DNA of 64,000 bases from positions 1,952,001 through 2,016,000 of the forward strand of contig CBDCDS010000003.1 of NCBI GenBank assembly GCA_965215365.1, read 5' to 3'. The DNA is from Gammaproteobacteria bacterium. GTDB lineage: Bacteria > Pseudomonadota > Gammaproteobacteria > Eutrophobiales > Eutrophobiaceae. This document shows positions 22,402 through 64,000 of the stretch, piece after piece. The position numbers were made by a program, and so were the translations under genes. Within the stretch, counting starts at the first letter, position 1; each line of letters starts with the position of its first letter. The notes under the pieces were generated by a model. It had not been told where the DNA came from and searched no databases. It saw only the letters and a list, made by a program, of their open reading frames with translations.

Positions 22402-22659
22402 GTGCCGATTATAGCAGAAGCTGCCTTTAGACCTGTATCGAAACTGCCTGACGGACCCATTACCGAAGGCCCGGTGTTGTGTCTGGACATCGACGGCGTA
22501 CTCTCGCCGGTCGCCCAGAATATCCTTGCTTATGATGAGTGGCCTGATAGAGCGACACGCGAGTCCGATCTGGAGACGTTCAAATCACGCCCAGGCCCCT
22601 CGTTACCACCGCGGGATTTGGGCGGAAATTCTAAAGTTGACTTTCCTTGCCCGCTGTAG
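22402..22659 (+). pseudogene. N-terminal fragment of a HAD-superfamily gene
   Basis: PVLCLDIDGVL (HAD motif I), followed by unrelated sequence and an early stop. Confidence 0.45.
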
Positions 22660-22705
22660 CACAATCGCCGTTGATGTGTTCTGCTCAACCATCGGGAGAC
22701 AGATA

Positions 22706-23243
22706 ATGAAACGATCTATTCTTTACCCCCCCCCCCCCATTCAAAAGACTGACGACCCTCATCGCCACACTGGTGGCGCTGACCGCGCCGGTGGCCGTTA
22801 AGGCCCAGACCGCATGCACACTCAAGGATGTTACGGTGTCCCAGACGTTTCCAGTAGCAGGCGCCCCTGTTAATGAAGCAGGCCAGGTCATCATCGACGT
22901 GTCTTTCCCGAGCACATGCCCCGCCCGGACCCGGCCGCTGACGGTCTGCATCGATCTGTGGGACACGACCGCCTGCCCGCCGGGCGCGCCGGTAAACAGT
23001 TGTGACGGGAACATCCGCGGCAGCACCGGGTTTATGCCAAGCGGCGGCTGGGTGCGCGACCGCGGCCCGACGGTCTGCAATAGGCGATTCCTTGAAGACA
23101 TTGGAGGAACAATCCAACACCAACTCAATTTCACGTTCAGCGTTCAGGATGACAGCGTCAAGGCAGATCGACAGAACTATCTCATCGTGCACACGCACAA
23201 CCCGTATCAGGTTTTGCGGATTCCCATCGTGGATAATGACTGA
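22706..23243 (+). CDS. Secreted Calx-beta-like protein, frameshifted at a C13 tract (candidate phase-variable gene, OFF)
   Basis: GGAG RBS and ATG 22706 give MKRSILY-PPPP; the signal peptide FKRLTTLIATLVALTAPVAVKAQ is in the +1 frame; mature part has PVNEAG...FSVQDDSV...IPIVDND. Confidence 0.65.
22726..22738 (+). repeat. Poly-C homopolymer (13 C)
   Basis: Counted directly; 20 nt after ATG 22706. Confidence 0.9.
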
Positions 23244-59845: not shown

Positions 59846-60208
59846 ATGAGGCATGTGATGGAATTTCAGGAATTTGTTGAAAATCAGATATTTTCCCCCG
59901 CACTTGTCGCAACTGCGTTGCGCACGACCAAGACTGAGATTGCCGATACGTTGGGGCTGGGCCAGGATGCGTTCTCACGCGCTTCTCGCATCCGGGCAAG
60001 AAAGACCCAAACCCGATTGCGACAAATGTTGGAAATCCTGCATCGAGTCTCAAGCTATACCGGTTCCGACCTGGCGGCTTATGCTTGGTTTCGCACAGAG
60101 CATTTACCGGGCTTCGGTGGGATGACCCCTGACCAGTTGGTCAGGGAAGGCAAGGCCAATGATGTTCATGCCCATATCGACCGTGTTATGGCCGGTGGTT
60201 ATGCCTGA
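59846..60208 (+). CDS. Xre/MbcA/ParS-type antitoxin
   Basis: AYAWFRTEHLPGFGGMTPDQLVREG C-terminal motif. Confidence 0.82.
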   Translation: MRHVMEFQEFVENQIFSPALVATALRTTKTEIADTLGLGQDAFSRASRIRARKTQTRLRQMLEILHRVSSYTGSDLAAYAWFRTEHLPGFGGMTPDQLVREGKANDVHAHIDRVMAGGYA

Positions 60209-60223
60209 CTTGCCCCTCTGCTG

Positions 60224-60721
60224 ATGCGTTTCAGGGGCCTGGTTTACCGTGCACACAACCCACGCTGGACCTGGGAGCCGACTTCGGGAGAGGGAGCTCG
60301 TCGCTATGGGGGACGCTTCAACCGTATCGGAATCCCAGCGCTTTATACGTCCCTGTCACCGCTCACAGCGCTGAGAGAAGTCAGCCCGACAGGACGGCTA
60401 CTGCAACCCATTACATTATGCGCCTACGAGGTTGATGCCGAACCTGTTTTCAATGCGTTGGATCCTTCACAGCGAGACGCTTGGGAGTTAGCGGAGCAAG
60501 AATTGTATTGCCCGAACTGGGAGCAGGAAATGCTGGCGGGCATTACCCCGGTATCGCAGAGTTTGGCCGATCGATTGAGTGCGGCCGGTTACGTGGGAAT
60601 GCGCGTTCAGAGCTTCGCAGCCGGATCCGGAACGGATGATCTCAACCTGGTGTTATGGCACTGGGGCAATCATCCGCCAAGTCAGGTCGTACTGGTTGAC
60701 GATGAAAAACGTTTGTCATAA
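60224..60721 (+). CDS. RES-domain toxin
   Basis: YRAH...SGEGARRYGGRFN...LYTS..TALRE...SFA...NLVLW. Confidence 0.87.
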   Translation: MRFRGLVYRAHNPRWTWEPTSGEGARRYGGRFNRIGIPALYTSLSPLTALREVSPTGRLLQPITLCAYEVDAEPVFNALDPSQRDAWELAEQELYCPNWEQEMLAGITPVSQSLADRLSAAGYVGMRVQSFAAGSGTDDLNLVLWHWGNHPPSQVVLVDDEKRLS

Positions 60722-60856: not shown

Positions 60857-61566
60857 TCACAATGGCCTCTTGCCTGCGATACTTCCGTTGATGGTGACAC
60901 TGATCGTTTCTTTGGAATCGAGAGCACAGTAACGCACCAGGCTTACTTTCTGATTAAATAGTGTGGTGTCATACCTGCGCTGAACGGTCACGGTCTGGTT
61001 CTCTACCGGAGAACCTTGGTGCCTTCCGTCCTGAAGGCTGGTGCCAGTGACAAAGTATACCGGCGGCTCTGGTTGTGGAGTCAAGGTCAGCGCAATGTCC
61101 ACCTCGTAACGAGGCTGCATACGAGCACCCCATAAATCTCCCCATCTTTTTGCGCCCCAAGCACGTCCGGGATGGCCGGCTGGAAGGGGCTCGAAATCAC
61201 CGTCATCTGTCGCTCGTCCGATACCCGTTCCCTTGACGTAGAAGTACGCGGCCGCAGTATTCACGTATTCCACTGCGCCGCCTGATGTTCCACAATCCGG
61301 CTGCCTATCACCACCACATCCACTTCTCACGACTTGATACTGTGTAGGTCTGTGTCCCTTCAGTCCGCAGGTTAATTGAAGCGTGAGACTGCTGCCGCCC
61401 ATGGTGCTTTGGCTTGTACCCAGAGATACTCCGGGCTCGGCTAATGCCAGTTGTGCGGTAAACAGTAGCGCGATTGCTGCTAGCGTTAGCTTTTTGAACG
61501 CTGAGGAGAGCAGGAATGACAAACCGGGGGGGGGGGGGGGGGGGGGGGACAAGTAGTTACTTTCAT
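60857..61566 (-). CDS. Secreted beta-rich (Calx-beta-like) protein, frameshifted at a C23 tract (candidate phase-variable gene, OFF)
   Basis: CAGGAG RBS and ATG 61566 give MKVTTC, then 23 C; the signal peptide GLSFLLSSAFKKLTLAAIALLFTAQLALA needs a tract length divisible by 3. Confidence 0.62.
61526..61548 (-). repeat. Poly-C homopolymer on the coding strand (23 G on +)
   Basis: Counted directly; 18 nt after ATG 61566. Confidence 0.9.
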
Positions 61567-61648
61567 GATTGATTCTCCTGTATTTTGATCGTGGTGATCC
61601 GGTTTTTATTTTGGCACCGGGCAGCCTTGTTAATCGGTTAATCGAATG

Positions 61649-61681
61649 CACGGGCGCCTCTGATCCTCAGCGGCGCCCGTG
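61649..61681 (-). terminator. GC-rich hairpin between the two secreted-protein genes
   Basis: CACGGGCGCC-13 nt-GGCGCCCGTG; weak U-tract. Confidence 0.45.
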
Positions 61682-61732: not shown

Positions 61733-62278
61733 TTAGGGGCGTTTATACTTGCTGTCTCCGGTTCTGGACCGCTGTCTGGCGTCGTCCAGAGAGTTCGCGA
61801 TTCTGGCGTTCGCCGTCACCGTCAGGGGGAGGCCCTCCACATGCCACCAGTCGGTCCAAATATACTGACCCCAGACCTTTCCGTAGCCATGCGTCTCGAA
61901 GTCGGACAGCACCAGCTTGAAACGGTTTTTGTCGATGACGTTATCCTTGAGCGTCTTGATCGAAAGCGGCATGACTCGCGTTCCTGCGGGAATCACTATA
62001 AACCCGTTTTCCGCCACGTAATCCTTGCCTGCCTTGGCACTGAGGTCTTCGGTGCGGTAGGCATACCGAATGTCGAAGTCGAGCGGACGGGACAGCATCA
62101 GGACGAACACCGCGTCCTTTCCCTCCCTGATCTGAACATCCGCTACATGCAGCTGCGCCGTGACGCCAGAGACAAGCCTGTTAGCCACGGCCGGCTGAAC
62201 CAGCGCCAACGCCAGCAGGATACCAACGGCCGCGGACAGGAAGCGGCGGGCGACCATCGAAGTGGTAGTGTGAGTCAT
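61733..62278 (-). CDS. Secreted Calx-beta domain protein
   Basis: Signal peptide; LHVADVQIREG..AVFVLMLS....YRTEDLSAKAGKDY...G...IPAG......I.TLKD; start at MTHTTT. Confidence 0.8.
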   Translation of the reverse strand: MTHTTTSMVARRFLSAAVGILLALALVQPAVANRLVSGVTAQLHVADVQIREGKDAVFVLMLSRPLDFDIRYAYRTEDLSAKAGKDYVAENGFIVIPAGTRVMPLSIKTLKDNVIDKNRFKLVLSDFETHGYGKVWGQYIWTDWWHVEGLPLTVTANARIANSLDDARQRSRTGDSKYKRP

Positions 62279-62434
62279 GGATTCATCCCCCAGTCTCTTG
62301 ATTTGTTGAATGTCAGAAACACCTTCGTGCAACTTCGCACAACCGGTTTTCCAGTTAAAAACCAGGGCCGATTGTAACACGACAGGGGTACTGTGTCAAG
62401 CCTGATGTCGCCTGATGTTACGAACGCCACACGG

Positions 62435-63107
62435 TCAGCTATACTTGACCGCTACAGTCTCCCGCCGATATCCGGCAAGATCTTCTTCGGTCATTTGCTC
62501 AGCAGGAACGAGACAATAATGCTTCTCCTCATTGATAACCACCCCCTTTTCTCCTGTCTCAAAAATGAACAGCGCTATCAGATTATCCCCCATAAACTGT
62601 GCAGCTACAGGCTGGCAGACAAGTTGCGGAAATTTTGCTGCGCACGGTTGTGCGCAGGTGGTTTTGCAGGGAATAGCACGTCACCCCTGAAAAAATATCT
62701 ATAAGCCGGTTATATCGTAGTTTTGCTAATAGCGCCTGTTCATCATTCAGCGCATATCTGGTGATAATTCCAGGTGTCGCATCCGGGATTTTTATTTGTG
62801 CCAGAAGGGGGTTCGGAATAATATACGGCATTGACGTCAACGAAAATTTATACTTTGCCTGGCCCACTGAGCGGATAACCCATTCCAGACCGTCAGGGGC
62901 GAGTTTCCGAATTGATTCCGGTAATGCAATGCGGTAACGGAAGCTGTAAATAACATCACCAAGATTCTTGGGTAGAGCTATACCAAGTTCCTTTGCAGCG
63001 CTGACCAGATCTTCGCGCCGGAAGTTTACTTCCTGTGCATTCTTCCTGTAATTCTCGTTGAAGATATGTTCGATGAGTTGTGAATATCGGTTTCCAGTCT
63101 TGGCCAT
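62435..63107 (-). pseudogene. Restriction-endonuclease-like gene with internal deletion and frameshift
   Basis: N-part ends ...LQNHLRTTV; C-part CAAKFPQLVCQPVAAQFMGDNLIALFIFE...EKHYCLVP...* continues in another frame from ~62644. Confidence 0.7.
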
Positions 63108-63118
63108 TTTGCCTCTCC

Positions 63119-64000
63119 TTATTGGCGCCCGGGCCACCTCAAGACAACTACTTCTTCCCGCATCTGTTTGCGGGTCGCTGTAGCCAGGCGGGTGCGAAAC
63201 AGGTCGATGCTGATGACCTGATAGCCCAGTGACCGGGCTATGTCTGCAAGTATTTGCCCAGTGCGGATCATAACCTGGAGGAAAGAGGCCTGATCGCCCA
63301 CAACATAACCGAGACAGGCTCCCGGTTTTAGAAACGGTCGCAATTCCGCCAGATGCCGGGCCATGCCGCCGAAATACAATCTGGTCACCTTTGCGTATTG
63401 CCTTTCAAAACCAGAGGTCTTGCCCAGCGTAATTCTGCGCTGTTCTATCTCTTCGGCTATTGCCTGTATCTCTGCATGACCCGTCACCCAGCCGTCATCA
63501 TCGTCGCCCTTATAGACGTTACGTGAATTGGATCTGAGCAGGCCTTTTTTCAATCCTCGCAATTCTTCCCTGTTATTGATATATCCTAACATCACGCTTT
63601 CCAGCCGCGTGGTTCTGGTATAGTCCTTCTCATTCGGATAAGGCGGGGACGTAAAAACAGCGCTGATACTTGCAGGGGATAATAGCGAGGCCAGCTGCCG
63701 TGCGTCTGCGTGATATACCGTGGCGGGTACATTTCGGCATGTTTTCATACGCAAATCCGCAACAATTTTATCCACTTCAGTCAACCAGCTCTCGATAACG
63801 GGTGCGTCTGCTTTTTTCGTTCGCCGCACCCCCACCTCCGGGCCAAAATACAGGTTGCTGGCGGAGTAAACCAGTGTTTTGGCAAATGCCAGTAGTTCAT
63901 GACGCTTATAGCAGGCGTCATTATCAGCCTCGATTTGTTCCAGCAGCGCCAGTGCTTTATGCAAAGGCAGGGGACTGATCGAGCCTTTCAATAACAGACA
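63119..64000 (-). CDS. DNA methyltransferase (N4-cytosine type), 5' part outside the window
   Basis: FTSPPYPNEKDYTRTTRLE, YVVGDQ; upstream of the endonuclease-like gene. Confidence 0.85.
   Translation of the reverse strand, partial: CLLLKGSISPLPLHKALALLEQIEADNDACYKRHELLAFAKTLVYSASNLYFGPEVGVRRTKKADAPVIESWLTEVDKIVADLRMKTCRNVPATVYHADARQLASLLSPASISAVFTSPPYPNEKDYTRTTRLESVMLGYINNREELRGLKKGLLRSNSRNVYKGDDDDGWVTGHAEIQAIAEEIEQRRITLGKTSGFERQYAKVTRLYFGGMARHLAELRPFLKPGACLGYVVGDQASFLQVMIRTGQILADIARSLGYQVISIDLFRTRLATATRKQMREEVVVLRWPGRQ

Follow-up and report, generated by a model that had tools for sequence, protein, structure and literature searches.

Why should the gene for a small exported protein carry 23 consecutive C residues just behind its start codon, in a number that sets the start codon and the remainder of the coding sequence in different frames? 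The question is raised by a gene on the minus strand, close to one end of a 64,000-nucleotide stretch (hereafter the window) of a gammaproteobacterial genome that is represented by a 2.73-Mb assembly of three contigs with 57.9% G+C. A first-pass annotation made from the letters of the window had described the gene as one of a family of secreted proteins that are switched by slippage at a poly-C leader. Re-reading of the minus strand confirms the observation itself: CAGGAG, the ATG at 61566, MKVTTC, exactly 23 C and then GLSFLLSSAFKKLTLAAIALLFTAQLALA followed by EPG are all in place, the sole correction being that the spacer between CAGGAG and the ATG counts 8 nt and not 7. The coordinates of this gene and of the other features discussed here are collected in Table 1.

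At 23 C the frame of ATG 61566 reads MKVTTC, eight prolines, VCHSCSPQRSKS and a stop codon, giving a product of 26 residues. At 21 or 24 C, the lengths that had been predicted to restore the frame, the same ATG joins a 222-codon frame ending at 60857, in which the tract encodes seven to eight prolines. By eye, these would be followed by a putative Sec-type signal peptide with a signal peptidase I cut (KK, LTLAAIALLFTAQL and A-L-A before E) and without a lipobox, and the A(E/A)PGVSLG junction is kept among homologues of the gene product. The gene holds a slippable repeat well above the size at which such behaviour is expected (about 8 bases or more) within its reading frame, and a change in the length of this repeat toggles between a full and a truncated product, as in switches of the pilC type that are considered below; exact lengths of long homopolymers in an assembly such as this one, with its three contigs, can err by one base. 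Taken together, the anatomy, the frame logic, the genome-wide repertoire, the length differences between copies and the existence of in-frame forms make it very probable that the 23-C run is a slipped-strand-mispairing switch, or contingency locus, in the signal-peptide coding part of a small secreted orphan protein. According to this model, replication slippage would add or remove C residues at the tract. With 21 or 24 C, MKVTTC, seven to eight prolines and the signal peptide would be made as one chain and the protein exported (ON), and with other lengths, including the assembled 23, translation would end after 26 residues (OFF).

Table 1. Features of the window and poly-C or poly-G loci of the genome. 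Positions prefixed C1 or C3 are contig positions; all others are window positions.
Feature	Position	Strand	Tract	Remarks
Shine-Dalgarno-like CAGGAG	61575..61580	-		8 nt 5' of ATG; direct sequence reading
ATG (61566-61564) and AAA GTA ACT ACT TGT, MKVTTC	61549..61566	-		direct sequence reading
Poly-C tract of the 61566 gene	61526..61548	-	23 C (G23 on + strand)	18 nt 3' of ATG
Signal peptide remainder GLSFLLSSAFKKLTLAAIALLFTAQLALA	61439..61525	-		KK, hydrophobic core, A-L-A before predicted cut; by eye
Mature protein, 193 residues and stop codon	60857..61438	-		begins EPG after GLSFLLSSAFKKLTLAAIALLFTAQLALA
G+C-rich hairpin, arms CGGGCGCC / GGCGCCCG	61651..61679	-		3' of Calx-beta gene, without T-run; by eye
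Single-domain Calx-beta protein gene, own signal peptide	61733..62380	-		PF03160, E 3.4e-9
Promoter-like TTGACA-17-TACAAT (11 of 12)	62371..62399	-		ahead of Calx-beta gene; consensus match only
Type-I leader module	22637..22738	+	13 C (22726-22738)	TTGACT/CACAAT promoter-like hexamers, 5' UTR, GGGAGA, ATG 22706, MKRSILY
Signal peptide remainder FKRLTTLIATLVALTAPVAVKAQ and mature Cys-rich Ig-like protein (predicted fold)	22740..23243	+		out of frame with ATG at 13 C
Poly-C locus	C1:66817		19 C	IS66-borne
Poly-C locus	C3:142548		24 C	leader cut off from gene
Poly-C locus	C3:621466		20 C	
Poly-C locus	C3:624559		10 C	
Poly-C locus	C3:882231		14 C	IS66-borne
Poly-C locus	C3:1661544		14 C	
Poly-C locus	C3:1674696		21 C	
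Poly-C locus	C3:1703032		16 C	
Poly-C locus	C3:1923772		20 C	IS66-borne
Poly-C locus	C3:1974726		13 C	window 22726
Poly-C locus	C3:2013526		23 C	61566 gene
Poly-C locus	C3:2482531		16 C	
Poly-G locus (thirteenth)	C3:185906		14 G	31 nt after ATG; read by hand
In-frame locus of the same build	C3:310488		9 C	
In-frame locus of the same build	C3:2527301		9 C	
3.6-kb repeat copy	C3:879833-883443			
3.6-kb repeat copy	C3:1921370-1924990			
3.6-kb repeat copy	C1 about 65.6-69.2 kb			

A second gene with the same build had been reported at 22706, and re-reading agrees: the ATG is followed after 20 nt by 13 C and then by FKRLTTLIATLVALTAPVAVKAQ and TAC, both window tracts thus lying 18-20 nt after an ATG preceded by a ribosome-binding site. 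At 13 C this gene is likewise out of frame, with a 31-residue product, and 12 or 15 C would restore the frame. The two tracts (61526-61548 and 22726-22738) are the only homopolymers of at least 9 bases in the window, as had been remarked.

The same arrangement recurs throughout the genome. Runs of A or T stop at 9 bases, whereas runs of G or C reach 24, and 18 of the latter have at least 10 bases. Thirteen of these 18 lie 13-31 nt after a start codon with a ribosome-binding site and before a hydrophobic segment that ends in an AxA-like site, the shared build being a ribosome-binding site, an ATG, 4-10 codons and the tract. Twelve are poly-C runs placed 13-21 nt after an ATG with a GGAG-type site, with [KR]-L-[TA]-like residues encoded next, then a hydrophobic stretch and the AxA-like site; the frames downstream are intact at all poly-C loci, with 160-263 codons. 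The thirteenth (C3:185875-186454) consists of GGAG-6-ATG, 31 nt, the G14 tract, a hydrophobic segment and a 189-codon frame without a Pfam family; the assembled G14 leaves it out of frame, and 13 or 16 G would bring it into frame. Strand positions 12-31 nt after GGAG-N4-12-ATG make up 0.83% of the genome, so that 0.15 of the 18 runs would be expected there by chance against the 13 seen (binomial P about 1e-23). A scan for GGAG-N4-12-ATG-N9-21-C10 gave 33 overlapping matches in this genome and none for the reversed control. The whole-genome scan that had been suggested as a check on enrichment before signal peptides thus came out in favour of a dispersed repertoire of poly-C-switched secreted proteins, with 13 long-tract loci and two further in-frame C9 loci.

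One member of this set departs from the common layout. At C3:142548-143250 about 100 nt of inserted G+C-rich sequence separate a type-I leader (C24) from its gene, and the downstream gene, which belongs to family 1, has its own ATG and signal peptide (beginning MTRFFANPIALTLL). Among the long runs outside the leader build, two lie in a polysaccharide cluster (C3:961340-968370) that encodes two GT4 glycosyltransferases, three sulfotransferases and a capsule-synthesis protein: a G12 stands in frame inside the first GT4 glycosyltransferase gene, and a G20 in a 152-codon ORF beside the sulfotransferase and capsule-synthesis genes. The remaining long G/C runs outside the build are at C3:82526, C3:1330058 and C3:1729989.

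The repertoire also bears on where translation of the 61566 gene begins. The gene call is a 264-codon ORF that starts from GTG 61651 and gives a 264-residue protein (P0001), and the first-pass annotation had itself named this start as the one that would undo its reading. In the 23-C allele the mature frame is open for 47 codons upstream and contains two potential starts, GTG 61651 and TTG 61553, which lie 103 nt and 4 nt before the tract, respectively, and the present allele might therefore not be fully silent. The 23-C allele could accordingly be ON from one or the other of these codons, the more so as an AAGGAG (61688-61683) is found just 5' of the hairpin that ends at the GTG. However, the G of GTG 61651 is the last base, and forms part of the last base pair, of this G+C-rich hairpin (61679-61651) and lies 31 nt from AAGGAG, TTG 61553 sits 21 nt from CAGGAG, and the 47-residue basic extension that would result is unlike a normal signal peptide. 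In relatives such as L003, that frame is closed by a stop codon right at the tract. Furthermore, on going upstream from the tract in the mature frame, a stop codon is reached before any ATG, GTG or TTG at 11 of the 12 poly-C leader loci, which leaves the ATG with its ribosome-binding site as the only plausible start there and makes the tract coding; the 61566 gene is the single exception. GTG 61651 and TTG 61553 are thus unlikely to be real starts, and an allele that is ON through either of them is highly improbable. For annotation this carries a warning, as gene callers truncate or mis-start each of the genes in this repertoire, the call from GTG 61651 in the window included. The hairpin was not called by a terminator scan. 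A promoter scan of this strand found no sigma-70-like site between the Calx-beta gene and ATG 61566; with a promoter-like site, a strong one by consensus, only ahead of the Calx-beta gene, the latter and the poly-C gene may be co-transcribed.

Portability of the leaders had been proposed as well, and it holds for the repertoire at large. A module of 100-190 bp comprising promoter, ribosome-binding site, start codon and tract is common to genes with unrelated mature parts, and related mature parts carry different leaders. Thus C3:1661544 and C3:2482531 share 89% identity over 110 nt from promoter to tract and have unrelated mature parts, and the mature part of C3:2482531 is 78% identical over 469 nt to that of C3:1674696, the leaders of these two being different. 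Between C3:142548 and C3:1703032, 81 aligned columns are 100% identical, made up of the 65 nt that lead up to the tract and its first 16 C's, after which the two sequences part. BLASTP sorts the proteins into a group of four, another of three, the trio of identical IS66 copies and four singletons that include both window genes, and the leader DNA types cut across these groups. The 22706 leader module has 72-86% DNA identity to four other loci of the genome. By contrast, the claim that the 61566 gene shares its leader with others does not stand at the level of DNA, where only the C run aligns; its likeness to the 22706 leader lies in the design and in the [KR]-L-[TA] motif and not in DNA homology. 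When compared with the type-I and type-II leader modules of the genome, the 61566 gene showed no promoter, UTR or first-codon homology to other loci. Judged from these alignments, it is a member of the repertoire by design and not by leader ancestry. Promoter-leader modules shared by several loci have been recombined onto unrelated mature proteins. Together with slippage, this would leave each cell with a mostly silent set of secreted proteins, from which its choice is inherited and can yet be reversed.

Do the tracts vary in length? Within the genome, one gene is present three times (C1:66817, C3:882231 and C3:1923772) as part of a 3.6-kb repeat that encodes a transposase of the IS66 family (PF03050, E 2e-42) and has a weak match to a D12 methyltransferase. 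The three repeat copies have no mismatches and one to three gaps, and differ only at the tract, which has 19, 14 and 20 C. Relatives of the 61566 protein with 58-68% identity are encoded at 10 loci in variously labelled complete MAG chromosomes. Seven of the nine of these loci that include the 5' end of the gene have a C run at the same leader position (L001, 9 C; L002, 13; L003, 12; L004, 13; L005, 13; L006, 10; L009, 11), and the other two, L007 and L008, have a plain signal peptide without a run, which indicates that the tract was inserted into an otherwise ordinary leader. Over the gene, L002-L005 share 95-97% identity, and by hand count the 13-C forms are in frame (on) and the 12-C form is out of frame (off); these four loci align over 853-990 bp only (the gene and about 240 bp upstream), their flanks being unrelated, and no neighbour is common to the loci of the relatives and the 64-kb window. 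Length differences between near-identical copies, a further mark of pilC-type switching, are thus seen both in sister loci and among relatives. In-frame forms occur in other assemblies: P0002 starts MYIKSPPPPPPPSKKL, and in the 22706 family P0010 starts MNTPPPPPVKRL and P0014 MPCPPPPKKM, both in frame, P0012 being without a run. Public runs that contain the stretch or part of it appear, as contigs, in 12 rows from six studies, with no RNA run among those listed; four of the 14 runs were compared, with 61517-61558 masked, and in all four the contigs end at the 23-C tract.

None of the 13 long-tract loci is in frame as assembled (none of 12 once the decoupled C3:142548 is set aside), and in G006, a complete genome of the same genus, two of the 14 places that fit the pattern are in frame. 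If one length in three were in frame, the probability would be 0.005 for none of 13 and about 0.002 for at most two of 27 in the two genomes. The annotation had held that tracts found invariant and in frame in accurate reads would speak against a switch; the assembled copies differ in length and 13 of 13 are out of frame. The mostly out-of-frame state fits a mostly silent repertoire, and it fits leaky transcriptional slippage as well, in both cases depending on correct length calls. A uniform one-base miscall as the origin of the all-OFF state was considered and rejected, since the out-of-frame remainders of the 13 loci are mixed, 6 against 7.

That so many loci are OFF (13 of 13 here, 12 of 14 in G006) could nonetheless reflect decay or miscalled lengths instead of switching, and the tracts might then be mutational accidents in decaying genes, or assembly errors, without a switching role. 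The separation of the C3:142548 leader from its gene and the breaking of contigs at the tract in four public runs would sit well with this explanation, as would the out-of-frame state of every long-tract locus in this assembly. It has to contend, though, with a placement of tracts that is extremely non-random, with A/T runs that are not lengthened, with intact frames downstream, and with the recurrence of the same tract position, in some cases in frame, in independent assemblies of other species; a consensus error is also too small to account for the 5-6 C by which identical repeat copies differ. We give this explanation next to no credence.

Polymerases slip on long homopolymers, and RNA polymerase might do so here, such that any DNA length would give some in-frame mRNA and the tract would act as a dimmer and not as a heritable switch. 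The tracts are very long (up to 24 bases here and 26 in G006), and a state in which nearly all of them are out of frame in the DNA (none ON of 13 here, two ON of 14 in G006) would be tolerable if slippage rescued some of the transcripts. Against this, tract lengths differ in the DNA between identical copies, in-frame alleles exist, and the 6-to-7 mixture of remainders favours no single direction of slippage. Control by transcriptional slippage in place of a switch is thus unlikely, although the two can act together, slippage in RNA being superimposed on switching in DNA. Against the DNA-level switch that we favour, the genome encodes intact MutS and MutL, so that hypermutation of the tracts is not helped by a loss of mismatch repair. 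In its favour, EF-P is encoded, which is needed for the translation of polyproline; the in-frame products would begin with 4-8 prolines.

Runs of at least 12 C or G were found in 16 of 18 same-genus genomes, against one of 12 genomes from other families. A strict form of the leader pattern was matched in five of 22 other same-genus genomes, the reversed control having no matches, and across the class 12 of 400 other genomes had the pattern, usually at a single place, compared with five genomes for the reversed control. Searched as DNA against 22 other same-genus genomes, the 61566 gene is matched solely by pieces of 29-53 nt that fall on the C run or the hairpin. LipA of this genome has its best matches, at 74-75% identity, in MAGs whose label goes no further than Gammaproteobacteria. 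Exact-pattern scans returned no matches for the 61566 leader or the type-I leader in metagenome contigs, and none for the type-I leader in genome contigs. The 14 loci of G006 (for example C1:568002, C1:1158850 and C1:2663336) have a leader type of their own, MKH(F/L/S)..L-(C)n-KLTT, whose runs of 11-26 C head a variety of secreted proteins. In another same-genus genome, G017, poly-C precedes frames of 53-68 codons on contigs C59, C227 and C251 (L042, L054 and L062), most of which end in FGS or SGS; the IS66-borne protein of the present genome also ends in GFGS. These ends may be a shared C-terminal signal, or the short frames may be precursor peptides.

None of 12 proteins matched Pfam or NCBIfam above the cut-off, the ESM Atlas gave no usable match, and the six homologues of the 61566 protein are all unnamed. 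An AF2 model of the 61566 protein (seven sequences, mean pLDDT 63.7) is a beta sandwich. Foldseek against the PDB returned nothing for it at E of 0.001 or below (best E 7e-3), and a wide VIA comparison gave a best Z of 5.3, to viral jelly-roll or sandwich domains, a generic likeness. The model of the 22706 protein (mean pLDDT 70.4) is an Ig-like sandwich with a best VIA Z of 8.3 (rmsd 3.1 over 108 residues) to the CLIPPER domain of a fibrillar adhesin, with pilin, cohesin and Calx-CBD1 close behind. The predicted Ig-like fold is a common one and would give a weak hint of adhesion. The description of the proteins as adhesin-like is therefore upheld only as a weak fold likeness, and for the 22706 protein only.

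A link between tracts and Calx-beta proteins had also been envisaged. A Calx-beta gene does lie directly upstream of the poly-C gene on the same strand (61733-62380; PF03160, E 3.4e-9), but only one of the 45 Calx-beta domain matches in the genome adjoins a tract locus, and no Calx-beta or RES neighbour is found within 1.5 kb at the loci of the relatives; the association was accordingly rejected. The 61566 and 22706 proteins have no Pfam family at E up to 0.01, and hence no PF03160 match. There is no Calx-beta chain among the 50 VIA matches listed for the 61566 protein, and the alignment of the 22706 protein with 3ead_A (CALX-CBD1; Z 7.2, rmsd 2.9 over 99 residues) is one among many Ig-like domains of similar Z. 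Elsewhere in the genome, an open frame of 18,507 codons (C3:1337327-1385356) with many Calx-beta domains encodes a giant adhesin-like protein.

For a few pathogens, phase variation by simple repeats belongs to textbook knowledge; in uncultured bacteria, environmental or symbiotic, it has to our knowledge received hardly any study. The opa genes of Neisseria form a multigene family of exported proteins with a shared leader containing CTCTT repeats, in which the copies switch independently and most are off. The present loci resemble opa in that a repeat-bearing leader is common to many genes for exported proteins, and differ in that the opa repeat is a pentamer on one mature family, as opposed to a homopolymer in leader modules on unrelated proteins. 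N. gonorrhoeae pilC1/pilC2 have a homopolymeric G/C tract in the signal-peptide region at which frameshifts switch a secreted or surface protein on and off (PMC5354566), a design also seen in the arrangement described here. pilC involves two genes, compared with about 13 here, and tracts much shorter than the 10-24 bases of the present loci; pilC is a pilus tip adhesin, whereas here small orphan proteins of an uncultured, non-pathogenic gammaproteobacterium are concerned and switching is deduced from sequence. In the Gardnerella sialidase gene nanH3, a poly-C of 8-14 comes directly behind the signal peptide, at about nt 100 of the gene; it varies within cultures, decides between full-length and truncated protein and misleads annotation (bioRxiv 10.1101/2020.09.16.300947). 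The likeness to it is a poly-C near the signal peptide of a gene for an exported protein; unlike in this single gene, the tracts here occur in many genes and at 13-31 nt from the ATG, ahead of the charged and hydrophobic segments. The poly-G/C phasomes of Campylobacter and Helicobacter are genome-wide and comprise surface-related genes including those for glycosyltransferases (PMC8355987, PMC2823697). As in these, G/C homopolymers occur here without equivalent A/T runs and a G12 is found in a GT4 glycosyltransferase gene. Phasome tracts mostly have 8-13 bases and are scattered within genes, whereas most of those described here are at one fixed place in the leader; a further difference is that mismatch repair genes are present here.

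The first-pass annotation knew of no description of the leader family. Within the literature open to the search, no paper was found that describes such poly-C or homopolymer leaders for symbionts or MAGs, and in this respect the view stands, but Neisseria pilC already provides an example of the device as such. New are the organism, the number and length of the tracts, the orphan nature of the proteins, the recombined leader modules and the carriage by IS66. The genome presents a full repertoire of switches on proteins without a family; their leaders are modular, and a mobile element carries some of the loci. This marks the orphan proteins as probably being under strong and changing outside pressure and as good candidates for interaction with a host, phage or grazer. 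We infer that tract lengths would switch within the living population, that the products would be exported, and that a host, phage or grazer would be the selecting pressure; combinatorial variation of the surface, as originally proposed, might follow.

A broader reading can be put forward only tentatively, and with more doubt than confidence. The promoter-RBS-MKxxx-poly-C-[KR]LT modules might be a portable switch that has been recombined onto unrelated orphan beta-sandwich exoproteins, with units moving on IS66 and as cassettes of about 1 kb between distantly labelled, co-occurring uncultured bacteria, and being kept overwhelmingly OFF (2 of 27 in frame in two genomes, P about 0.002). Were this so, non-pathogenic and probably host-associated bacteria would share a mostly silent, bet-hedging surface repertoire, in which polyproline and EF-P would form a possible second layer of control.

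Directly downstream of the poly-C gene, and convergent with it, a RES-domain toxin (PF08808, E 1e-24) is encoded with an Xre/MbcA/ParS-type antitoxin (PF09722) at 59846-60721 on the plus strand. On the minus strand, 62583-63991 contains two overlapping ORFs of 184 and 290 residues without a Pfam match, the 290-residue ORF having a PPY-containing motif and resembling a DNA methyltransferase; the two are possibly a restriction-modification pair in the same variable region.
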